A stretch of DNA of 59,940 bases, counting the filler, from Squatina squatina (lineage: Eukaryota), in NCBI GenBank assembly GCA_031763465.1. It is 3 parts of 2 records of this genome, joined end to end, with 100 filler letters (N's around TTAATTAATTAA, not from the genome) between each part and the next. Parts side by side here need not be neighbours in the genome. Positions count along the whole stretch, not along the records: positions 19,222 to 32,051 come from JARFOE010987552.1; 2 more parts are not named here. One strand, given 5' to 3'. The translations under genes and the position numbers were made by a program. The notes under the pieces are model-generated. The model saw only the letters and a program-made list of their open reading frames with translations. It was not told where the DNA came from and did not search any database. Positions 19,222 to 49,749 of the stretch are shown in pieces. Position 1 is the stretch's first letter. Every line of letters starts with the position of its first letter.

Positions 19222-19416
19222 TTTAAATACCAAGGGAGCTGAATATCAATATTAACAAACCCTGTCACTCTGCAGGCTACTACTGACATAAGTTCTATAT
19301 TTGCATTAATACCCACCAATTTGTTTTCTACTGAAAATCTCGAAAGTTTGAGTCTTTCCCATTATGACGAATTGACTAGAGTTAATCAGACGACCATTTC
19401 TGTACCCGTCACTCAC

Positions 19417-19710
19417 CTACTATTACCACCACCAATGCCTCACTGAGCTGTGACTGTAACTGTCTTGTTTTGACCAAGGTTCTTTATAGGCATCCAAACC
19501 ACCATCCGTGATATGCAATGTTAGACTGAAATGTACACATGTTCTCTTTTGTGACTATTTCAATGGAGGGCAAAAGTGAAGCGCCTCTGTAAAAATATAA
19601 CTTTTTCTTGTGATATTCTCTGGTCACAGTGCAGATTATGCTGACCCTCTCTCCATCTAAATGCACTCTGTTTGGCCGAGTAAGATATATCACTGGCGCT
19701 TTTAGTGGAT
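19417..19710 (-). pseudogene. Disabled Ig-like domain exon (294 bp, phase 1/1)
   Basis: DPLKAPVIYLTRPNRVHLDGERVSIICTVTREYHKKKLYFYRGASLLPSIEIVTKENMCTFQSNIAYHGWWFGCL*RTLVKTRQLQSQLSEALVVVIV. Donor G|GTGAGT intact; acceptor reads CTG instead of CAG (19713-19711); in-frame TAA at 19486-19484. Confidence 0.8.
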
Positions 19711-20899
19711 CAGTGGTAAAATGAACAGAAGGTATAATTAGAAGTAGATCTGTGGATTTTCCTGTACATTAGAACGTTGGACACTTAATTATTTCGCTGT
19801 TTTGAATGGAAGTGCCAGCTTGGGGGATTTAGATTATACATCAGGGAAATATGCAATTCCATTGGCGGAAATGCTTAATAAATCCACTGGTGATCTGTTT
19901 GCAAAAACAGGGTTTAACGTTTAAATATCACTCTGGCAGACACGAGGAACAATGGGAAAGTGCAGATTAGAAATTCAGCATTCTGGTACTTGAGCCGAGT
20001 CATACCCTGATAAAAGAGATTGAAATTCTCTGCTAATAAGTGGGGTTTTACATTGCAAATAATGTGCCATGAAATTGGGAATGGTTATAAGACCGCCTTT
20101 TATTTACCATCTGTATTTGCCACTTGAGAAGGCGGTGAGTCTTCTTATTGAACCACTGCAGTTCTCTGTGGTGAAGGTGCTCCCGCAGTGCTGTTAGGTA
20201 GGGAGTTCCAGGATATTGACTCAGCAATGATGACAGATTTCAATGTCTAAGTCGGGATGACTTGTGATTTGGGGGAAATTTTGAGGTGGTGTTTTTCCCA
20301 TGACCTGCTGCCCTTGACCTATTGGTGGTGGAGCTCGCTGGTTGGGGAAGTGTTCCCAATCCAATTCAGGGGGAGATAGGAAAAGGCAAAATATAATCAA
20401 GTTCATATGTTCCACTTAACAGGATCAATTTGAAAAACTCAGCAAATATTTTTGGTTAATTAACAGAGAGATCTTCCTAAGGAAAAGGCCAACAAGTCTG
20501 CTGCTGCAACGTGAGGTGATACCACAGTCAGTGGAGCTAACTCACTGGTTATTGCATTTCCGACATTCTAAAAATTGTCAAACTGAGAAAAGGGCGACTT
20601 CTGCACCTTCACGCTTATCATTAACATGTATCAAAAATACCAGTGGTTGGAATACCAACACCAAGAGCCACCAATCTACCCTTTCTTCCAGTCCAAAACA
20701 CAGCCGTTCACCACTACTATTTGCAAGAAATTTGCTCGCATTCAATATTTGTCCAGGTTACTTTTGAAATTTACTCTTGCCAAATTCACAAGATCCTTTC
20801 AGGCAGTGCTTTCCAAACCTTAACAAATCGCTGCATTGAAAAGTCGACTCATCCCACATCTGGCGTTTCTATCAGTAAGATTAACTATGAACGACCCAT

Positions 20900-23330
20900 C
20901 TGATAGTGGAAACGGTTTCACTTTAATTACTTTAGAGAAATTCATCATGATTTTCAACTGCTAAATTAAATCTCCCCTTAATCTTCTCGTCTTTTATGGG
21001 AACAATTCCCAATTATGTCGCCTCTCCACACAAACTTAACACCTCATCCCTGGGATATCCCCAGTAAAGTTATGCTGCACCTTCTCCAAAGCCTTGGCAT
21101 CCTGATTAAAGTTCAGTGCCCGGAATTGGAAAGAATACTGGAGCTGAGTCCTGACTAGTGATTCCTATTTTTTATTGCAGGTTCTTGAATTTTACTTCTA
21201 CATCCCAATTGTAAAACCAAAAGCACCACACGTTTTATTCAACAGCCCATCAACTTGTCCTGCCACCTTCAATGATTACTGTACAATTACACTCATGTCT
21301 CGCTTTTGCTGCCCTCCTTAAATTAGTGCTATATTATTTAATAAGCCTCCCCTAATTCTCCCTGCAACTGCATCACCTCAAACTGTTCTGCGTAAAATCT
21401 GTCCTGCACGTATTAGCCCATTTCAGCAGTCTCTCTGAGTCATCCTGATGTATGTTATTATCCTTCGCAGTTTTTCAAACCTTTCCGAGTTCTGTGCAAT
21501 CTGCTAACTTTGAAAGTCTACTATGTAGAACCATGACCGGGTCATTAATATATCTTGAAATGAACAATTGTCCCATATACAGATCCTGGGTATAATACTG
21601 GTTACTTTTCTCCGATTGAAATGCCACCATTTGATCTATTATTTGTATCTGTCTGGAGAACAACATCCCATCCACCCAGCCTCTGTGCCTCCAATCATAA
21701 CAGTTCAATTTTGTTTGCAATTCTATTCTGTGGCAATTTATCTAAACCTGTGTGAGTCCATGTACAGGGAATCAACCAAAATACCCGTAAGTGGCATCTC
21801 CATCATTTCCTCAAATAACTCTATCAAGCTTGTCTGACACGACTTGACGTCTGTCAATTAGTAACCCATATTTTTCCAGATAATTGTTAAAATTGCCCCG
21901 GATTTTGGTCTCTGGAATCTTACCACCACATCAACTGTCTCCTCTGTATGTATCGGGTTCTCGCCATCTTTGAAAGGGCCTTAACATTTGCAAAACTCCC
22001 GTTCTTTGCCACCACTTGCATGTCCAAGGTCGATTTAGGTTTACAGTTAGTGCTTCCAGTATTACTTCCCTCATTAACGTAGGATGCACCCTGACCGGAG
22101 CAGGTGAATTTTCTACATCGAGTGATGCCAACCTTTCAATTTCTATTATTATTTATATTTATATTCTCCATTTTCTCTTCTCCAGGCTCCTTTTCTCCAA
22201 TATGGACAGTGTGACCTACTTTAGTGAAGGCAGTTGCAAAGAGTCATTTAATGTCTCAGCCAATCACTCTGCCACCAGAAGCACACAACATGTTTGAACA
22301 TAATCAGCTCCATCCTTTCTTGGACCATCCATTGTTATTCATATGTTTCCAACAAGATTTAGTGCTCCTTTTTATGGTACAAGGTAATATTTTTCCTAAC
22401 TTTCCCTTTGATGCTTTTATATCAGTTTTCAGCTCCCCTCTGCACTTTCTTTAATCTGTTCGATTCTTTCATGTATTATGAGCTTGGACTTTACCACAAG
22501 CTTCATTTTCCTGACATCTTAATCCAAATTTCCTTAGTTCTCCAGGGATGCTAGCGTTGGATGCCCTTCATTTCATCCTCATATGATTGTGTCTATTCTG
22601 TACGGTAACTATTTCCACCCATCGTTTATTAACAATTTTACCCAATCCTACTTGGCCACATCCCATTCAGCTCACTGAACTTATTATTTTTCCAAATACG
22701 AATATTGAACTTTGATTGTCCTTGTACTGTATCAGAAGTAATCAAATTCAAATTCTGTTTTTAAGATATTTCCAAGTTCACTCACAGTAAAACTTGCTGC
22801 ACTTGCTTCACATTATTTCACAGAACTCGCTTCACCACTCATTCCTTCCAAACTTGGCTGGAAACACATTGATCAAGGAAGTTGTATTGTACACATTTCT
22901 GAGAACCTTCCCCTGCTTTCCCTTTGCAGTAGCTTATGTTTATAATGGGAACATTGAATGTCCTTGTTGTCACTACGCTATTGTGTTTACAACTTTCTGA
23001 AATGGGCATGGAGATTTAATGCTCCCTCTCCTCAGCTTTAGTCGGCAGTTACTGGTCTAAACCTTATTCTTGCTCAGAACCAGAATCACATGACATTGGC
23101 CTCCTTTATTTTGGAGATTCATTTCTTTGGACTGATGTTCCAAGTGCTTGTTCGACTTTTCCCATTTCACCGCCTAGAAATGAATCCAGAATGACTTTGT
23201 TCCAAGGTCGGCTGGAAATGCGCTGATCAAGGAGGATTTCTTGAAACCATATCATAAATCTTTCCCCCATCTTCCTTATTACACTGCTCTCAGTTGATAT
23301 TTGAAACATTGATGGCCCTCATTATCTATA
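20900..23330 (-). mobile_element. Long, heavily decayed CR1 LINE (endonuclease to RT)
   Basis: GQLFISRYINDPVMVLHSRLSKLADCTELG (~21480-21580) resembles LFLIYINDL..ISKFADDTKLG; GERFMIWFQEILLDQRISSRPWNKVILDSFLG (~23170-23270) resembles the APE endonuclease end. Boundaries approximate. Confidence 0.7.
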
Positions 23331-23523
23331 CAATAATGTGTTTACAGATTTGTCTTGCAGATTCTGTTCTCCCTCTCCTGGCCACTATTTGGTGCACACC
23401 AATCTGCATTTTTGTGTTACTCGTATTAAGAATCACTGGAACCGGCTCAACACAACATTAGCGATTCATTAGTTTAAGCCAATAATTATAAACTTGCTGC
23501 AATGTCAGGAAAACATTATTTAC

Positions 23524-23817
23524 CTGTTACAGTTAACTCAACAGGGTCGCTGGCCTGTGAAAGCAACTCGATTCCTGAAACAGTTATTGTGTAATGGCAA
23601 CTGTATGATCCTCCGTCCAGCTCAGAAATGTGATCTATTCGGTGCTGATAATTACTCCAATCTTTTTCTGTGCGGTTCAACGATTCACTATTTCTGTAGA
23701 AGGTAAAGTATTTACTGCGCTGGGACCCAGTAGTGTCACATGTTTGCGTGGCCACCTCTCCTTTTATGTAGACACCTGAACCTTGGTCCAGTAAAATCCT
23801 TGGAGTCGCCAGCTGAT
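23524..23817 (-). CDS. Intact Ig-like (C2-type) domain exon, 294 bp, phase 1/1, of an unnamed IgSF receptor
   Basis: TTTTGTTGCAG|AT...ACA G|GTAAAT; DQLATPRILLDQGSGVYIKGEVATQTCDTTGSQRSKYFTFYRNSESLNRTEKDWSNYQHRIDHISELDGGSYSCHYTITVSGIELLSQASDPVELTVT. Two Cys 46 residues apart, DGGSYSC F-strand motif, SDPVEL G-strand. Confidence 0.88.
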
Positions 23818-24199
23818 CTGCAACAAAAGTTTAAAAATGCATTTCAGAAATAAGGCACTTTGAAAGTATTTTGCACATTATGAATGAGGATGTTAATCGC
23901 TATTACCGCTCTGCTGGAAGGCGATCCTAAAATCATAGATACTTGAAGCTCACAAAGAGGCCATTCAGGCCATCTTTCTTGTGCTGGCTCTTTGAAATGG
24001 CTAATCAAATTGTCCTGACATTTGCTCTTTTCCGAAAGACCATAACATTATTTCCTTTGCAAGACTCTATCCAATTCAATTTTAATATTGTTATTGTATA
24101 CTGTTCCCCCGCCATTTCAAGCATAACATTCCAGGTCATAAAAACCAACTGTGTAAAATAAGCCCTGGTTTTTTGCCATTATTTAAATCCGTGTCATCC

Positions 24200-24730
24200 A
24201 ATCCAAGTGGCAAGTAACATTCAAGCCACACAAGTGCCAGGTGAAAAACACCTCCCAGAAGAGAGAATCTAACCAGCTCCCCATGATATTCAACAGAATT
24301 AGCATCGCTGAATCTCCCACAATCTACATGCTGTGGTTCACCATTGCCCTTAAACCAAACTGTACCAGACAGATACACATTCTGGTTACAAGAGCAGGTT
24401 AGTGACTGAGTATTCTGCAGCGAATTTCTCATCTCATGACATCCCACATCCTTTCCACCATCTACAAAGCACACGTCAGGACTGTGTTGGAATGTAGATC
24501 ACTTCCCTGGATGAGTGCAGCTCCAACAATACTCAACAGGCTTCATATCATCCAGGACAAAGCAGCTCGCCAGATTTGCACCCCAGCCACCACCTTCTGC
24601 ATTCAGTCCCTCCACCACCGGCGCACACTGACTGCAGTGTGTACCTTATATAAGATGCACTGCAGCAACTCACCACAGCTTCTTCGTCACCAGCTCCGAA
24701 TCATGCGACCTCTACCCGGTCGAAGGACAA
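24200..24730 (+). mobile_element. Non-LTR retrotransposon (CR1/Jockey group) RT C-terminal fragment
   Basis: LSTIYKAHVRTVLECRSLPWMSAAPTILNRLHIIQDKAAR...QSLHHRRTLTAVCTLYKMHCSNSPQLL in ORF 24436-24903. Confidence 0.8.
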
Positions 24731-26822
24731 AAATAAGAGTCCTAAAACTAAGAAAAAATCCAAGTCTACCCGTGTTGTCTGAAGCACATATAATGAGCTG
24801 CCAAGATGGCGGGGCACAGCATTTTGCAAAATTGGCTGCTCCCAGGATTGCACGCAAGAAAAGGAAAATTGATGCTGAGTATCACGTATTAAAATGCCCT
24901 TAGGACGCGGGTTGTTCTTTCACCAAACACAACGTATTTAGCCTGATATATCTGGAGAAGCTAGTAATTTTCAAGGAATGCAATATCAAGCAAGATTTTT
25001 CCACAAAGGACGCTATCAAATTTGACAGCATCATGGCTTAGTTGAGAAACGATCGAGTGACCTTGCAGAAGCCAAATGTGATCGGGCAATAATATTTCTT
25101 CAAAGCTGCAAACCCGAATTCTGAGGCAACAACCAAGTTTAGATTTTTGACAGTGGAATCAATAGTCACGAAAGTGAAGCCATTGTCTGATGGGGAGTTT
25201 GTGAAAACTGTTTGGGCATACTTCTATCTGCTGTATGTTGTGACAAAAATCCAACATAGAAAAAAATCAGCCTTTCTCATCAAACATTTATGAGATGCGT
25301 AGATGACCTGGCATCAGCATTCAACATTCTCTGATCAAACGAATGAATGTCTGTGAGATTTTCAGCTTAGTGGTCGATGAATGCACAGATGTGAGTGATA
25401 TAACTCAACTGGCAATCTTTGTATGATGAGTCATCAACACCTTTGAAGCCGTTGAAGAACGGCACAATCTATGTCCAGCGAAAGGGTCAACAATGGACCA
25501 AGACATTTTCGATGAAGTAAAACGTATCTTGGTGAAAGTCAATCTTCCAGAGATTAATCTAATAACTGCTGGAGCCCCTGCTGTGAGAGGCAGAGACATG
25601 GCTTCGCTCATCTAATGCACAGATCAGTGGCTCGTGATGCAGTCAGACATCACTGCATCATTCACCAACAAGAGCTCTGTGCAAAGATCCTGGAGATGAT
25701 ACATGTGATGGAAATCTTTGATCATACAATCAATGTCATGACGTCCAATGGGCTGAATCGCAGGCTTTAACAACCCTTCTAACAGAGGTAACACCACAAC
25801 ATGACGATGGCGTTCACTTCAGCCTTGTTCAGTGGCTCAACGAGGCGACCACAATAGCCAGTTTCAGGTCAGTGGTAGCAGAAAGGAAAACCTTCATGTC
25901 AAGCAAAGGAAACATATAAGCTTCGTAGATGATGATCATTGATTCAAAGATTGGCATTCCCTGTTGACATCACCAAGTATCTTGAAGACTTGACTGTGAA
26001 GCTGCAATGAAAGGGTCACTGTGTAATCAAACTCAATGAGCATGTCCAAAGGATTATTCAGGAGTTAGACATTTTTCAGACACTCTAGATCGTGAAGAAA
26101 GCAGTGAACGCTATCGAGAAGGCAGAGTGAGAGGGTGAAACAAGAAAATTGTACTGCACGAGAGATAATTTCCAAGAATGTTTTTCCGATATCAGTGAAT
26201 ACTGTGATGTTCTGAACCTATTTGCAGATCCATTTGGCACTGATGTCGCTGATGCTCAGGACGTGTTCCAACTGGAAATAATTGAGATTCAAAATGACAG
26301 TGAATTGAAGAGAGCTTTTGCAGAGCATTGGTCTACTGACATTTTACTGTCAATATTCCCCCTGGGAGTCTTATCCTAATCTAACAAGAAATGCCCGCTA
26401 TTCATTGCCCTGTTTGCCAGCACGTATTGCTGGGAACAACTTTTCTCAAGAATGAAACATTTCAAAGGAAAATAAAGATCACACGTGAAAGGCGAACTAC
26501 TAACCGGAATACTCTGCATTGCTACATCAAATATTCTGGCAGACATTAACTATTTGTGCAAGCAAAAAACACTGCCAGATATCTCAATCAAGGAGTGGTC
26601 AATACAGTTGTGAGAAACCAAGCGAATAATTTAGTCATCTGAGCTGAAGCTTGTTCATAAATATGCCCTTGTTGATGTTTTGATAAATAGTGAAAAGATA
26701 AATAATTAAATAATTATTTCATCTCGAATCAAATGCATTATCTTTCTGAAATTTCCTCACTCGCGCTCCATGTGGCAAAAATTATAATGTGGCTCATTAC
26801 AAAAAATGGTTGGACACCAGAG
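24731..26822 (+). mobile_element. Decayed hAT transposon (Charlie/Buster/SPIN; GTF2IRD2/EPM2AIP1-like transposase)
   Basis: Ordered motifs RKKRKIDAEYHV (24853), FSLVVDECTDVSDITQLAIFV* (25361), HCIIHQQELCAK (25651), LFADPF..QLEIIEIQND (26218), LFASTYCWEQLFSRMK (26410); many stops and frameshifts; Charlie-like right end GTGGCTC..AAAAAATGGTTGGACACCAG. Left TIR not found. Confidence 0.88.
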
Positions 26823-28139
26823 AAAAAGACAGACTGTTGAAAAGTGCAGAAACATGGACGGTGCATTTGATTGCGAATCAGTGTGAAACGCTACAACTTG
26901 TGATAATTTAATTGCTACTATTTTAAGAGTGGCATAAGTTCTAAGGGACCTGGAATTCAATATTCACATGTCTCTGAAGTTGGTTGCATATGCTGATAAG
27001 GTGGGTAAGGAAGCGTATTTCATAAAATAGGGATTTTGGTAATAAGAAACAAGGAAGTTATGCAAAACATTTGAAAAGCAATAACTTGGCCTCAGCTGGA
27101 ACATTGAGTAGTGTTCTGGCACAAGATTTTTTAAAGGCTCCCAACGCATTAGAGAAGGTAAAGTGGAGGTTTACCAGGGGGACCATAGCAATGAGTGTTT
27201 TCAGTAATGTGGTGAGATTGGTGGAGCTGGTATTGTTATATTTGTTACAGAGAAGATTAAGGATGGTCCAATAGATGTATTCTAAATTACGAGGTCTATG
27301 ATTGAGCAGCTGGGCATTAACTGTTTCCTCTGACACGTGGGTCTGTAAACAAAGGTAAATTAATCAAATAATTGGCAAAATAACTAACGGGGCAGGGAGC
27401 AGAAAAAGATTCACATCCCTTGGGTGAGACGTTAAACTGATATTCTTTCTTTCCTCGTCGGGGAAAAGTGAATGTGGATTTTTTTCTTTTGGAACTGAAT
27501 CACTTTCTGAGATTACTTGGGTTGAGGAAGCAGGAGGTGCAGTTAGTGAAAACAGCGAGTCCAGAGAGGACTAGCCCTGAAGGAGAGAGAAGAAAAAGTA
27601 AAATTACATTCATAACTAGGGCAGGAGTCGCTGGTTGAAGGAAAAACATTTAAGCAGCAGAGGCAGCTGATCGGAGGAGCATTTGGATGGAAAGATTGCC
27701 TGAGGAGGCAAGTTCGGGGTCGGGGGTGGAGTGTTCGTGAATTTAGATGGAAGACCTAATATGAATCGAGAGGCTTAGGAAACACATTCAGGCTGCAAAC
27801 GCTGAGGGCTGCTGGTTATTGAAATTGCTGCAGAGTTTGCAGCCTTTCAGGACAACGACGCCCTCAATGCAAATGCTGTGTGATGAAAGGAGAAGACATA
27901 ATTGGTAAGATACTCTGATGGGATTGACTTTCGGCAGAAAACTACAAAGTATGGAGAGGACAGAAGAGTGGATCGACGTGAGATGCTGATTGGAAGAAAA
28001 GACAAAAAAGTTGCAAGAGTGAGCTGAAATGTGTAAATTAATGATTAGGACCACAGTGCAAACACAGGCCTCTGCTGGGGCAGGTGGTGGCTTGTAGGAA
28101 GCGTCAGAGAGGTTTAAGCTGTTGCCAATGTGAGCTCAG

Positions 28140-28760
28140 TCAAAGCCAGTAAAGCAATAGCAGTGTTCATGTTCCAAACGAGCCTCCTTCCAAGCCGACC
28201 TCATCTACACCCATCAACATATCCTTTCATCCCTTCCCATCTGATGTGCCTTCCAAACATCCATTGAATGCATATAAGCTGGTCCCCGCAACTAGCGAGT
28301 TCCACATTCTCCCCACGCTCCGATAAATACCTTTCTGCAGGATACACTATCAGCTTCACCAGTGATTATCTTATACTTATTGCCCTTATTTCCGGTCTCC
28401 CCGTAATTGGAAACATCTTATTGACGTCTGCCCTGTCAAATCCTTTCATAATCTCAAAGACATCTATCAAATCCCCCCTCCCATTACACTGCGCTCCCCC
28501 AGACCCCCGATCCCCCGCCACACACAACCCCCACCCCCGGCCTCTTATTTCCATCGAAACAATCCCGGGAATTATCAATATTTCCTGATAGTTAAAGCCT
28601 GTTAGTTCACGTAGCTTTCTTGTAAATATGTGTCTATATCCCTTTTTTAACATGGAGATGGATCTGGTGACAGAACTTCAACTGCGGTCAAAGTAAGTTG
28701 CGATTCAAAATTAACATCAATTCTCTGTTTTTCATTTTGAGGACTTTAGAAACGAATTCC
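28140..28760 (-). mobile_element. Old CR1 3' fragment
   Basis: RGDLIDVFEIMKGFDRADVNKMFPITG in ORF 28366-28653. Confidence 0.75.
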
Positions 28761-29447
28761 CGCATATTATTTGAATTGCTAACCATCATTGCTACTTTTT
28801 TGATTGCTGTACAGGAAGCAACCAGATCCCTTGGTGCCTCGACCATATTAAGTCACTTTGGGTGGTCAAATCGTGTTTTTGGCATTTCCAGTGCTAAACA
28901 CCGAATTTAACGCTGAAATTGGGACGCTTTGAAAATTTTCAATCAAGTCCGCAATTAGCCACTTTACAATTTGAGAGTTCTAATACATGCAAACGTTAAT
29001 CTTAAGGGACCCATATGTAACTGACCTATTGGAAGTGTTCAGGCAAATTCCACGGCTTGCTTCCAAACTGACAGTTCACTGATTTCCAAAGTTTGTTTCC
29101 AACCTGTCAAGCCACTAAATAGCTCAGTTGACTTAAGTGTTTCAAACTTCTTTATTGGCTACTTTCTAGCTTCCAGCATTTAATGCCCCAAATATCGCCT
29201 TGATTGCTCAGTTATCTCAGTTCCCAGTTCAAACAGAAGAGCTCACACTGACCCTGCTGACTTCACGCAGACCCTGTTCACTGCTGAGGTTTGGGCTCAG
29301 CTCACACAGATCTGGCGGGGGCTTACCCACGTACCTACCTGCAAAGCTACCCACCCACCTTTCCACGGTAGGATCTCAGAGTAAGTAACAGAGCAATACA
29401 ATTGAGTGCACTATGACTGCTTTCAATTGCGCTGCGTTATCCAAATT

Positions 29448-29840
29448 AACATAGAAACATGGAAAATAGGTGCAGTATTGGGCCATTCGGTCCTTCGAGC
29501 TGCCCCGCCATTCAAGACGATCATGGCTGATCTTTCAACTCAGTACCCCGAACCTGCTGTCACTCCATACCCACTGATCCACTTAGCCGTAAGGTCCACA
29601 TCTAACTCCCTTTTGAATATAGCTAATGAACTGGCCTCAACAACTTCCTGTGGTGGAGAGTTCCACAGGTTCACCACTCTCTGGGTGAAACCGTTTTTCC
29701 TCATCTCGGTACTAAATGGCTTCCCCCTTATCCTGAAACTGTGACCCCGTGTTCAGGACTTTCCCAACACCGGGAAGATTCTTCCTGCGTCTAGCCTGTC
29801 TAGTCCATTAAGAATTAATCATCTTTCTATAAGATCCCAT
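29448..29840 (-). mobile_element. CR1 LINE 3' end
   Basis: AACATAGAAACATGGAAAATAGG tail plus CR1 3' UTR and ORF2 end (GAGTTCCACAGGTTCACCACTCTCTGGGTGAA). Confidence 0.88.
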
Positions 29841-31039
29841 CAGCTGGAGTTTGCTTTCTGGAATCAGGTTTATCGCTGAAATATCACTTTAGTCACGCAA
29901 GGAACAAAGGGAAAGTGTTTGTTTGTATGTCACCATTTTGAAATTTCAGTTGAGTCATAACCCGATTAAAAACAGTGAACATCTTCTCATAAGTGGAAAT
30001 TATTAGTTGCAAATGAAGCAGTTAATTATTGGTGGGATCTGTGAAATGGGAGTTTCACCTTAACCATCTCTATTGCTCAATGAGAAGACGACAGTTTGGT
30101 TCTTCCGGACCAGCTGCAGTCCGTGCGGGGCAGGAAGACTCACAGTGCTGCTATGTACAGAATTACAGAGTTTTAACTCGGTAATGATGACAGACTTCAA
30201 TATCTAACTCAGGACGATTTGTAATTTGGGATAAAATTTGGGGATCATGGTGTTCTCGTGCACCTGCTACCCTTGAACTTCTTGATGGTGGACGTTGCTG
30301 GTTTGGGAACTGTTTACCAATCCAATCAAGAAGGTGATAGGCAATCCCAAATTATAACTCATTTAATTTATTCACAATAATAGGATTACTTTGAGAATCT
30401 CAGCACGCAGTTTCGCTTTATTGCGAGCAAAATCTGGAATATGACAAGGCCAGCACATCTCGCAGAGCATCGCGAGGGGACGCCATAGTCAGTGGAGTTT
30501 CAACACCGTTTACGGCATTGCCGAATTTTGTACCATTTGCAAACGTATAAGCAATTACTCCATCAAAACCTACGTCCTGATTGTTAACATATATCGATGA
30601 GAGCAGGAGTACCAAAACTAATAAATCAGAACACAAATCTGCACATTCCGTCAGTCCAAAACACAACCGTTCACCACTAAACTGTGCCAACAATTTGCTC
30701 GTCTGCAAGTATTCCACCAATTTTCTTTTGAAAGTTACACTGGAATAGTTTTCAGACAGTTTTCAGGCATCACTTTCTAGAACGTATTAAACCACCTAAT
30801 CTCACATCTGTCTTTTCTGACAATTACATTAACTCTGTTTCCTTTGGTTAAACACCCTGCTGCCTCCTTATAGTGTTTGTCAATATTTACTTTATGGAAA
30901 CTCTTCATGATGTTGAACGGCTTTATTGCATCTCCCGTCAATCTTTCTGTCTGTGATGAGAACCATGCTTAAGAACAATAGAGTTATTATAATCGTCTGG
31001 GAAGGGAAGCTGTTGCAGGTGTTTATCTGGCTATGATTA

Positions 31040-31360
31040 GATCAATCAGAATGAAGCCATTTCGGCCTCTGCCAGCTGGACAATGGTGGAAAGACGTTGC
31101 AGAAGGATAGAGTGGTCAACTCTGTCGATGTCTGCAGGCCTGACAAGGAGGAAGTCGAGAATTAGGCTGCCTTTGTCCCAGTCACAACATGACATCATCA
31201 GTGACTTTGATGGGAGCAGTCTGACCAGTGAGGAAGGAGAGGAAACTGGATTGGAAGCAGTCAAACATGGGCCTGCGAGAAAGATGGCAACGGATTTTGG
31301 AGGCGACATCACATTCAAGATTTGGAGGGACAAGGGTGCTTGGATATGGGGCGGTCGTTT
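31040..31360 (-). mobile_element. L2-clade LINE RT fragment
   Basis: CDWDKGSLILDFLLVRPADIDRVDHSILLQRLS resembles L2 LLVLLDLSAAFDTVDHSILLQRL. Confidence 0.75.
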
Positions 31361-32051
31361 GCAAGGATTGAGGATTCTTGGTGTCTTGGATTCTCGGATT
31401 TATTTCAGGATTTGCACTGTCCCTGGCAGGAAAGAGTCAGCCTCTGTGCTCAGCATAAATGATTACTGACAGGATCTGAGCGCAGAGACCATCTCTGTGT
31501 AGATTAAACACTGACGGCTCTGCCCTTAAATTAATGGAAGGAACAAGCAGGAATCAGTCTGTGCATTTTCCTACATGGTGAAAGGTTGGTAATGTTTTAA
31601 TGATTGTGCTGTCATAAAGAAATTGTTTCAACCAACAATTCAGATTCTACAAAAGTGGAATGGAAGCTTTCAGTGGCAGACAGAAACAGAAATGTGACGG
31701 AAAATGATTGAGCCTGGGATCTACTTCCGAAACCAGATTTTAGCGCAGCGTTTCACTCAAGCTTACAAGTATAATGCATTAACTCTCACTTCTCCGAGTT
31801 AAACGCCATTTGCCACTTTTCCAGCCATTTCACCAACCCATTGATATTATTCTGGAATCCACAGTTTTATAATTCACGATCAACTACCCGGACAATTTTT
31901 GTGCTGTATGCAATTTTCCCAACTGTTTCACACCACCCACAACCCCCCGCAACACCCCAACCCACATTAAAGTCCAAACCATTAATATATACCGCAAACA
32001 GCAAGGCAACCAACACTGAGCCCTGCGAAGCACCAGTGGAAACGGCTTTCC

Positions 32052-45969: not shown

Positions 45970-46292
45970 TTAAGGAGGCCTTAGAGAGGGTGCTGAAATA
46001 TTTACGAGAAAGATTCCAGGGATGAGAGACTTCAGTAACGTGGCTAGACTGGAGAAGCTGGGGTTGTTGTCGTTGGAGAAGAGACGGTTGAGGGGAGATT
46101 TGCCAAAGGTGTTCAAAANNNNNNNNNNNNNNNNNNNNNNNNNNNNNNNNNNNNNNNNNNNNNNNNNNNNNNNNNNNNNNNNNNNNNNNNNNNNNNNNNN
46201 NNNNNNNNNNNNNNNNNNTGATCTGGGACAAAGGTTCGGCACAACATCGTGGGCCGAAGGGCCTGTTATGTGCTGTATTTTCTATGTTCTAT
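45970..46292 (+). mobile_element. CR1 3' fragment (gap inside)
   Basis: MRDFSNVARLEKLGLLSLEKRRLRGDLPKVFK, then GGGCCGAAGGGCCTG..TTCTATGTTCTATG tail. Confidence 0.85.
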
Positions 46293-46294
46293 GG

Positions 46295-47519
46295 TCGTAC
46301 TCTGGGTCTGTATACAATACTGCACTGGTGGCACTCTGTGTGTGCACAGAATACTGCACTGGTGGTACTGAGTGAGTGCACACAATACTGCACTGGTGGT
46401 ACTCAGTGTGTGCACAAAATACTGCACTGGTGGTACTGAGTGAGTGCACACAATAATGCATTGGTGGTACTCAGAGAGAACCACAATACTGCACCGGTGA
46501 TACTCAGTGAGTGCACAATAGACTGCACTGGTGGTACTCTGTGTCTGTACACAATACTGCACTGGTGGTACTCTGTGTCTGTACACAATACTGCACTGGT
46601 GGTACTCTGTGTGTGCACACAATACTGCACTGATGGTACTCAGTGTGTGTACACAATACTGCACTGGTGGTACTCATTGTCTGTACACAACACTGCAGCA
46701 GTGGTACTCTGTTTGTGCACACAATACTGCACTGATGGCACTCTGTTTGTGCACACAATACTGCACTGGTGGTACTCAGTGTGTGAACACAATACTGCTC
46801 TGGTGGCACACTGTGTGTGTGCACACAATACTGCACTGGTGGTACTCTGTGTGTGCACACAATACTGCACTGGTGGCACTCTGTGTGTGCACACAATACT
46901 GCACTGGTGGTACTCTGTGTCTGTACACAACACCGCCCTGGTGGTACTATGTGTGTGCACACAATACTGCACTGGTGGCACTCTGTGTGTGCACACAATA
47001 CTGCACTGGTGGCACTCTGTGTGTGCACACAATACTGCACTGGTGATACTCTGTGTGTGCACACAATACAGCACTGGTGGTACTCTGTGTGTGCACACAA
47101 TACTGCACCCGTGGCACTCTGTGTCTGCACACAATACTGCACTGGTGATACTCTGTGTGTGCACACAATACAGCACTCGGGGCATTCTGTGTGTGCACAC
47201 AATACTGCATTGGTGATACTCTGTTTGTGCACACAATACAGCACTCTTGGCATTCTGTGTGTGCACACAATACTGCACTTGTGGCACTCTGTGTGTGCAC
47301 ACAATACTGCACTTGTGGCACTCTGTGTGTGCACACAATACTGCACTGGTGGCACTCTGTGCGTGCACACAATACTGCACTGGTGATACTCTGTTTGTGC
47401 ACACAATACAGCACTCATGGCATTCTGTGTGTGCACACAATACTGCACTGGTCGTACACTGTGTGTGCACAAAATACTGCACTGGTGGTGCACTGTGTGC
47501 ACAGAATGCTGCACTGGTC
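46295..47519. repeat. 34-bp minisatellite, about 36 copies
   Basis: Consensus ACTCTGTGTGTGCACACAATACTGCACTGGTGGY head-to-tail; explains the Cys/His-rich ORFs on both strands (34-aa period = 3 units). Confidence 0.95.
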
Positions 47520-49749
47520 CTAAATATTCTCAGTTTGCTTCAAAGATTCATAATGCACAAAAGTTCTGAACCTGAGTAAACGATGAGGTATTTCTCACAA
47601 GTGAACCCAATAAAACACTACTTTATTTAACACCCATACTTTTGTGTGTGCCAATGGGGTTGATCGGCATGAACTATTTTTAACTGACGGTTTAAAGTGT
47701 GAGAGAACATCTTTGAGAATGGGTTACACAGCAGCCTGCCACTTTAGGTTGTGTTTTAACTTCAAAAAACCTAAAATTTAAGAATTATGAAGAAAATCAG
47801 TCATCTCACAAAAACAAACACTCATCCCGAATACCAATCAGTGAATAATAGAAACACTGAAATTTGATCTTTCAGATCGAGGGGGAAAAATACTGCAGTG
47901 CTCACCCGTGCTGCCAGTGAACCTATGGCTAATTAATAAAACATATAATCCATTAAAACATTGCAATTGGAACCAGGGCAAACATCAATAATTTCAAGCT
48001 GAACCTTTGGGACTCAATAAATTATTCACAAAATTAACCTCACTATGATAGACTAACTCTTAGACCCAACAATGACTGTTGAATCATTAGATATTTCATT
48101 GATCTTTTTGTTAGGAAATTTACAGTCTCCATATTAACAGGTTTCTACCTCCAGATTGTTAATCTCATTCACAGTTATATTATTAATGCCTAATGGCTTT
48201 AAGGGAAGCCTGTTTATAGTTTCAAACCATTTTAGTATCTGTTTCAAACTGTGTTGACAACAGGCTTGCAGACAACCTGAGCCATAAGTGCATAGCTCAA
48301 AATGGGGAATGTGAGCTCTCTACCCTCCCAGGTTCTCACAAACGGCACGTTATAAACACTCATCTATTTACATATTCAGTGTCAAGCGACTGACGTTTCT
48401 TTGGAAGACTTTTGCACCTTGTTCTTGTTCTAACAATTCTTGTGCACTAATGCAGGAGGATGAAAATGTTAACTAACTAGGCAATATAAGCAGAATATTA
48501 AGCATTCAAATAATAAATTTCGATACTCAGTCAGGCAATACAAGCACTTGAGAAATTCGTTTCTGAGGTAATTTTGATTGTTGACCTTTTTATATAAGGA
48601 TCAAAAATGTCCACGTGCCTCTTGCCTACAGATTTGAGCATTAAAATCTTTAGGTTCATGCACACTGATATTGGGAAATATTCATCTATCACAGTTGAAA
48701 ATCAAGGGATATGTTGCAATTCAGGCGGCAAACCAGGTAAAAGAAGGTGATGCATGCAAATGGGATAATTTAGGAGAAGATTAAAATTGGATGAATAAAT
48801 TGATTCAACATCCCTTGTGCAATGTTGACTTGAGGAAGTGGCTGATTCCTGTATCCTCTCTCACTGCACTTTACTCAACTAATGTCATAGGTTGCAGGTC
48901 AAAGGCAGCCCCAGGGAGGAATCCAATTACAGTTGTGGAGTTCACAATTGAAATATGAGCGATTAATCTAACTATGCAGCAGTAATATTGCCTGAATAGA
49001 TAAAACCTATTTGCCTGTAATTTTTTTAAATAAATGAAGAATAACACATAGAAATACTTTCCTGTATTCCCTAAATGTTGTCCAGGCCTGTTTATTTTNN
49101 NNNNNNNNNNNNNNNNNNNNNNNNNNNNNNNNNNNNNNNNNNNNNNNNNNNNNNNNNNNNNNNNNNNNNNNNNNNNNNNNNNNNNNNNNNNNNNNNNNAT
49201 TGTTTTGAGTGACACCTCAGCAACAGAACGAAAACACAACTCTGTTTCTGAGTTGGTAACTGTGGACAAGACCAAACTGCAATGAAAATACCCAGCTTTG
49301 TGGAGAGAATGGTTCTGAATGTGCTGGGATCCTGCCTTATCTACAGTACATCACATGAAGTACATTACATAGATCAAGTAGAGCAAGCAAGTCTGCAAGA
49401 GGTATCACCATTGGTGGCAGAGCAGTCACTTGAACTGACAGCATGATAAATTTATATTAAACTGCTGATTAAACATAGTTCTGGCATCAAGTAAATTTTT
49501 AATGCAGTTTATTTTTAACTCAAATAATTTGCATTTTGTGTGTCTTCAATATTTCTTGCAGCTATTGGATTTCTAAACTGCTGTTGTATTTAATATAATT
49601 ACATTGTAGATTTAAATGCATTGCACTTCAGGCACTTTTCCATGGGGAAAAGCTTTGGTTTCTTAAACAACTCCTATTTGAATAAACCCTTTGGGAACTG
49701 AGTGTTGCAGAAAGGCTATATTCACTTCATTAATTAATTGCAGAGTTAT

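Follow-up and report, generated by a model that had tools for sequence, protein, structure and literature searches.

Two immunoglobulin exons of Squatina squatina: part of a probable pseudogene in an expanded elasmobranch family of predicted paired receptors

The window analysed here, a stretch of 59,940 nucleotides (filler included) from Squatina squatina (GenBank assembly GCA_031763465.1), holds one whole, gap-free contig of 12,830 bp (G000:C987552, JARFOE010987552.1; positions 19222-32051). In this contig a sequence-only reading had noticed two minus-strand immunoglobulin (Ig) exons and had attributed them to a fast-evolving leukocyte receptor family resembling those of the leukocyte receptor complex (LRC) and the Fc receptors, with one domain disabled. 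The locus raises the question of which receptor family the exons belong to, how such a family may work and whether the copy in the window is still a gene. The best explanation, to which a probability of about 0.7 is given, is that the two exons encode the first and second domains of a receptor copy that has likely become a pseudogene; the copy belongs to an expanded multi-Ig family of elasmobranchs, whose intact members are predicted to act in pairs, as inhibitory and activating receptors of leukocytes.

Exon A (23524-23817, minus strand; 294 bp) has AG and GT splice sites and an open frame and encodes an N-terminal (D1-type) C2-like Ig domain, and exon B (19417-19710, minus strand; 294 bp, GT donor) encodes a disabled D2-type (B-type) domain. 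Both are of phase 1/1, with cysteines at positions 26 and 73 and 46 residues between them. They are separated by an intron of 3,813 bp (19711-23523, minus strand), both ends of which are homologous to the introns of paralogous copies; beyond exon B, 195 bp of the contig remain. The exact coordinates bear out what had been read from the sequence about exon size, phase, cysteine spacing and a distance of 3.8 kb on one ungapped contig, and the high divergence noted between the exons amounts to 22 identical residues out of 97; the ending Y.C.Y...S..SDPVEL.V was found in exon A and not in exon B. Exon A scored 29.5 bits with Pfam Ig_2 (cut-off 27), and the family profile gave 106 bits for exon A, which was among its input, and 79 bits for exon B, which was outside it, so that neither exon is a chance reading frame. 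In the PDB, exon A had its four best matches in PIR-B and LILRs, none of them strong (E 4e-6 to 4e-4), and a single-exon search against the protein collection gave no match.

The search of the genome with exon A returned 72 places at E<=10, with 37 at E<=0.001 (the query itself counted); almost all lie on contigs only a few kb long, and the weaker ones include exons of FCRL type; the DNA search with exon B returned 14 places. The assembly is in 1.15 million pieces, exon counts are lower bounds and alleles may be included. The paralogue count, proposed earlier as a check, shows that the family is expanded. Its exons measure 288-306 bp, are of phase 1/1 and fall into four types, namely D1 (exon A-like), B (exon B-like), C and membrane-proximal; in the tree exon A groups with the D1 types (support 100/93) and exon B lies inside the B types (100/99). 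Paralogues of this genome reach 75% identity to proteins of Pristiophorus and 87% to those of Heptranchias, values that suggest a squalomorph shark.

The same family occurs in other sharks and rays. The search with a 22-domain profile recovered 33 proteins, 29 of them from elasmobranchs (nine shark and ray genera), under the automatic names FCRL5, IGSF1-like, KIR3DL1, LILRA or uncharacterised. Six of these (P0002, P0004, P0005, P0006, P0010 and P0011) have a D1 with 45-53% identity to exon A, followed by a B domain as in the window. Two kinds of membrane segment exist among the 29 elasmobranch proteins: 18 have an uncharged segment, often followed by two tyrosine motifs, and six an Arg segment with a short tail; the two motifs (xTYAVL and TxYAxV types) are present in the tails of 11. 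One protein model holds both kinds of segment and may represent two fused neighbours. Since both kinds are found among the relatives, the family is likely paired, comprising inhibitory-type and activating-type members; the signalling type, left undetermined in the sequence-only reading, thus receives an answer at family level. Membrane exons, which together with tyrosine-motif exons had been proposed earlier as a check, were found elsewhere in the S. squatina genome (nine uncharged, three Arg-type). Two results from this genome count against pairing: only one of the three Arg-type exons retains its Arg, the other two carrying His or Cys, and no tyrosine-motif exon was found in the incomplete assembly with three queries. 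The genome also contains one zeta/gamma-family adaptor exon (62.9 bits), which does not allow FcR-gamma and CD3-zeta to be separated and which we take to be more zeta-like.

In LILR and PIR receptors, tyrosine-bearing tails recruit SHP-1/2 and damp activation, and Arg segments pair with an adaptor that carries an immunoreceptor tyrosine-based activation motif. From this established biology we infer that the outer domains of the inhibitory members would bind ligand and their two tyrosine motifs would recruit SHP-1/SHP-2, while the Arg-type members would depend on an FcR-gamma or CD3-zeta adaptor for signalling. Candidate ligands, by analogy, may be class I molecules of the major histocompatibility complex (MHC), antibody constant regions and pathogen surfaces. 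The PDB searches also gave weak matches to neuroplastin, NCAM2, titin and contactins, which could instead point to a decayed Ig-superfamily gene of structural or neural function, outside the immune system; dozens of paralogues, frequent decay, paired membrane segments, tyrosine motifs and the position of LRC receptors at the top of the fold searches all speak against such an origin, which is considered most improbable.

As to the kind of leukocyte receptor, fold, membrane-proximal domain and tree lean towards an LRC-like rather than an FCRL-like family. The predicted model of exon A (pLDDT 89.6) compared best with PIR-B (Z 14.5, root-mean-square deviation 1.4, 90 aligned), NKp46 (Z 14.4), LAIR-1 and CHIR-AB1 (both Z 13.9); FcgRI, at Z 13.4 (deviation 1.4, 83 aligned), was within about 1 Z of the LRC structures and barely outside a tie. 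FCRL structures were not among the 50 rows of this comparison, and no weight is put on that. Foldseek ranked LAIR-1 and LILRB4 first, and the Atlas look-alikes were mixed (IGSF1, allergin-1, FCRL5, PECAM, TARM1) and do not discriminate. The membrane-proximal domain matched LILRB2 over its full length at 1e-12 and FCRL5 at 9e-4; an intact D1 paralogue of exon A gave no LILR match in the PDB. The absence of the C-strand Trp, taken previously as typical of LILR/KIR-type domains, is not diagnostic, as domains 4-9 of FCRL5 are also without it.

The view that the family is a shark branch of FCRL/LITR receptors, and not LRC-like, draws on FCRL5 being the best summed PDB match both for the family profile and for the whole protein P0020, and on the FCRL5 names given to many members by RefSeq. 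That score, however, adds nine domains, and the profile alignment mostly ends near position 77 of 97. The tree comprised 81 rows and 97 columns, 21 of 102 domain rows having been removed beforehand as near-duplicates, with LRC references from three species and FCRL references from shark and sturgeon domains. The careful tree separated the family, along with tetrapod LRC and the long Ig receptors, from the FCRL types and outgroups (88/57, bootstrap not settled). The quick tree placed the family on the LRC side against FCRL with a support of 93 in the Shimodaira-Hasegawa-like approximate likelihood ratio test, and the membrane-proximal type beside tetrapod LRC with 82; at this last point the careful tree was without resolution. 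By the approximately unbiased test (p-AU), an exclusive clade of family plus FCRL was rejected (0.013) and so was one of family plus LRC (0.009), whereas a tree with LRC outside the family-plus-FCRL side was compatible with the data (0.31), as an FCRL branch would allow. In the domain tree suggested earlier as a check the family leans, with weak support, to the LRC side, and an exclusive LRC clade is rejected. With the LILRB2 match and the separate FCRL-type domains of this genome on the other side of the tree, descent from the FCRL/LITR branch is judged quite unlikely. Sharks do possess FCRL-type genes, and in S. squatina their exons lie on other, mostly small contigs. One such contig (L063, G000:C967098) carries four successive FCRL-type Ig exons, one of them with stops, and one of these exons has seven more matches in the genome.

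The LRC-like character of the family falls short of membership. Asn three places before Arg (the NxxR motif) was found in none of the six Arg-type proteins and not in the one Arg exon of the genome, while the Arg and the inner Glu are present in the Arg-type membrane segments; the tortoise reference P0156 does carry the Asn. The motif and the LRC framework genes are defined in the accessible part of Guselnikov and Taranin 2019 (PMC6557307), and NxxR in Xenopus is treated in an excerpt of PMC4536121. As regards the framework genes, PRPF31 was not found in the genome search, the TTYH1 exon is on a contig of 672 bp, and the sole Not3 (CNOT3-type) match is on C38 (G000:C38:650001-800000), where no family exon was found in 150 kb, half of them N. 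The neighbours of the Not3 match are presumably TNRC6B, RPL3, GTPBP1, a CBX and WBP11, which are not LRC framework genes. No link from PRPF31, CNOT3 or TTYH1 to family exons emerged in the fragmented assembly. Owing to the missing NxxR, the weak tree support and the lack of a synteny link, the family is not filed as an LRC member, even though its sequences suggest that it works like an LRC family. What remains of the earlier attribution is an expanded, fast-evolving and little described LRC-like family of cartilaginous fish, whose membership of the LRC itself stays putative.

Two family exons lie in large scaffolds. An open C-type exon (L057, G000:C189:538780-539082) occurs in a gappy scaffold of 10.8 Mb, among exons with Pfam Erf4, Fz, NTR, zf-met, TM2, TACC_C, AWS and PHD and about 80 kb from an SRCR exon; this neighbourhood, which we take to be the GOLGA7-SFRP1-ZMAT4-TM2D2-TACC1-NSD3 block of human 8p11, surrounds a single placed piece that may be a misplacement. 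An open B-type exon (L023, G000:C120:6581777-6582061) is found in a scaffold of 10 Mb, about 65 kb from an ERAP1_C exon. For the two neighbourhoods 148 of 326 and 148 of 337 candidate exons were scanned, and, as lone exons in gappy scaffolds, they carry no evidential weight.

The copy in the window is itself quite probably a pseudogene. Exon B has two lesions, a TG where paralogues carry the AG acceptor (19711-19712, minus strand) and an in-frame TAA at codon 75 (19484-19486, minus strand), two codons past the second Cys; the conserved Tyr preceding this Cys is lost, and the private ratio of nonsynonymous to synonymous change (pN/pS) is 1.0. The description of one disabled domain holds for exon B and probably understates the damage, the whole copy being more likely dead than alive. 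Exon A has a Gln at position 24, in contrast to the Leu found there in the D1 paralogues with which it was compared. Nine D1-type exons were found, five of them broken, three complete and open and one cut by a contig end, and the broken ones include the three with the DNA most similar to exon A (L002, L003 and L005). The splice-site scan detected no leader exon in the 8,234 bp upstream of exon A; as a positive control, it found a leader exon of 31 nt on C242, 8.4 kb upstream of its D1. A scan with a leader profile matched nowhere and is uninformative. The orphan B-exon intron upstream of exon A, described below, was also counted toward decay.

Contigs of three DNA runs (X1, X2 and X3) of a related organism, all from one study, cover the locus at about 92%, and at 85% exon B is outside their cover. 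Two contigs of run X3 span exon A with 19 differences, 18 nonsynonymous and one synonymous, and with no stop and no indel. The nonsynonymous differences affect 18 of 225 sites (8.0%), compared with 352 of 4,452 (7.9%) across 20 pieces of non-coding sequence, a set that may include copies of repeats, and synonymous change is low (1/66; p 0.06 versus the non-coding pieces). This pattern fits neutral decay with a chance deficit of synonymous changes, and it fits also diversifying selection on a live binding domain. The acceptor of exon A is lost in one contig each of X1 and X2, at a depth under 3 and possibly by error.

If the gene were alive, the dead exon B would be skipped, exon A would be spliced to exons off the contig, and exon A would be a ligand-binding domain under diversifying selection. 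Several observations weigh in this direction and against decay. Exon A is open and modelled well, with both splice sites intact here and in the X3 contigs and no indels listed in the relative; its ratio of 18 nonsynonymous changes to one synonymous has a p of about 0.05 against the site counts. Phase 1/1 exons, exon B included, can be skipped in frame, in a family whose relatives range from 2 to 10 domains. The leader distance on C242 just exceeds the upstream span of the window contig, and the intact-looking paralogues have, among themselves, a dN/dS near 1, so that rate cannot separate dead from fast-evolving copies. However, the nonsynonymous rate of exon A equals the intron rate, the Gln lies in a core strand and is retained in the relative's contigs, the acceptor is lost in some of these, the nearest paralogues are dead and no leader was found. 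A live gene is thus considered unlikely and the pseudogene is preferred. The family turns over by tandem exon and gene duplication plus decay, and the copy in the window is most likely a casualty of this process.

A third element, missed by the sequence-only reading, lies directly behind the donor of exon B: a fossil half-exon (19258-19413, minus strand; 22.8 bits) that corresponds to the second half of a B-type Ig exon and contains a stop. It was considered as a mark of decay of the window copy and rejected in this role, as the same remnant follows 8 of the 17 paralogous B exons examined and is therefore older than this copy. The shared intronic half-exon, which is a new observation, identifies a subfamily that, following an old partial duplication, was copied as one unit. 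Seven of the remnant-bearing contigs extend to a following C exon, which is open in one of them and broken or truncated in the other six. Upstream of exon A, positions 29838-32050 (minus strand) hold, without its exon, a copy of the intron found ahead of B-type exons in the paralogues (83-88% alike); this orphan breaks about 190 bp before the expected exon start. At the break there is an interspersed repeat fragment (29448-29836, strand not assigned), presumably LINE-like. Between this fragment and exon A, a retroposon-like open reading frame (24406-24903, plus strand) and, further upstream, transposase-like fragments were seen (24406-26900); these identities are assumed, and neither the frame nor the fragments have a Pfam match. 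In another part of the window (46269-47576) there is a tandem repeat array with several frames open, and no Pfam match was found among the 61 of 92 long open reading frames that were scanned in the two other parts.

A wider search, with 30 named among 150 listed proteins, added tetrapod LRC proteins and, from rays, horn shark, chimaera, teleosts, frogs and turtles, long receptors of the multi-Ig and SRCR-Ig kinds. Five receptor genes of this wider group in Pristis pectinata (P0034, P0036, P0086, P0104 and P0009), among them a receptor of about 25 Ig domains and another that has SRCR domains, are each on a contig of 5,270,553 bp and likely form one cluster. The resemblance of the shark family to HIDE1/C19orf38 is a further new observation. 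Pfam PF17737 matches 13 of 22 family domains at E<=0.01 and two whole family proteins at 66 and 86 bits, and it is the best family of the chimaera relative (121 bits). It also matches a 12-domain lizard protein (88 bits) and a sturgeon FCRL-type protein (46 bits). Mammalian LILR and the tortoise LRC protein gave no match to it at 1e-4, exon A itself gave none, and most family domains score at least as well with generic Ig models. Among the HIDE1-type Ig exons of the genome, L156 (G000:C794758:85-321) scores best, with 36.8 bits for PF17737. On such sequence resemblance HIDE1 may be a mammalian relic of the wider multi-Ig group. It is tempting to speculate, although we hold this to be somewhat less probable than not, that the family represents a proto-LRC surviving in cartilaginous fish. 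In that case the membrane-proximal domain and Arg segment of the family would be sister to those of tetrapod LILR/KIR/CHIR, diversifying selection would act on exon A as a binding domain, and the long multi-Ig/SRCR-Ig receptors of chimaera, teleosts, frogs and turtles and mammalian HIDE1/C19orf38 would belong with it to one hitherto unrecognised radiation. In that event LRC-type paired signalling would date to the first jawed vertebrates.

The family is present in RefSeq under automatic names and is unnamed as a family. No paper describing it was found in the literature, subscription journals being mostly outside the search and supplements not covered; the likeliest prior description, to judge by its title, is Wang, Belosevic and Stafford 2021 (Immunogenetics 73:93). 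The portion of Akula et al. 2014 available (PMC4016189) reports no C2-only LRC, FCRL or FcR-gamma homologues in sharks, and the available text of Guselnikov and Taranin 2019 (PMC6557307) is without the word shark. In the accessible part of PMC11372145, genes labelled fcrl3 and fcrl5 are given for bamboo shark B cells. As RefSeq gives many members an FCRL5 label, these genes may include members of the elasmobranch family. Sharks possess MHC class I and antibodies, and we know of no innate-cell receptors that read them. A large paired family under birth-and-death turnover is an obvious candidate, and if it fills this role, LRC-like signalling moves back to the root of jawed vertebrates, suggesting that paired receptors of the LILR/KIR kind predate bony fish. 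The copy in the window, being probably dead, adds little functionally, and its value is as a record of family turnover.

Among known systems, the closest are the elasmobranch RefSeq/UniRef models (P0002 of Pristiophorus; P0006 and P0012-P0015 of Heptranchias; P0010-P0011 of Scyliorhinus; P0016 of Mustelus), which share domain types and order and are named, inconsistently, FCRL5-like, IGSF1-like, KIR3DL1 or LILRA. Exon B is up to 50% identical to their B-type domains. These models are intact, whereas in the window copy D2 is dead and the contig carries neither a leader nor a membrane exon. Next in score come the long multi-Ig and SRCR-Ig receptors of chimaera, teleosts, frogs and turtles, which share the family's side of the tree. 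FCRL and teleost LITR receptors share long Ig arrays without C-strand Trp and paired signalling, but the separate FCRL-type domains of this genome group apart from the family. With the tetrapod LRC (LILR/PIR-B, NKp46, LAIR-1, KIR, CHIR) the family has in common one C2-type Ig domain per phase-1 exon and paired membrane types with Arg near the outer and Glu near the inner end. It also shares many decayed exons, as the available text of PMC6557307 describes for the LRC of elephant and armadillo. Tetrapod LRC receptors carry NxxR, whereas the shark family is PxxR-like and has up to 10 domains.

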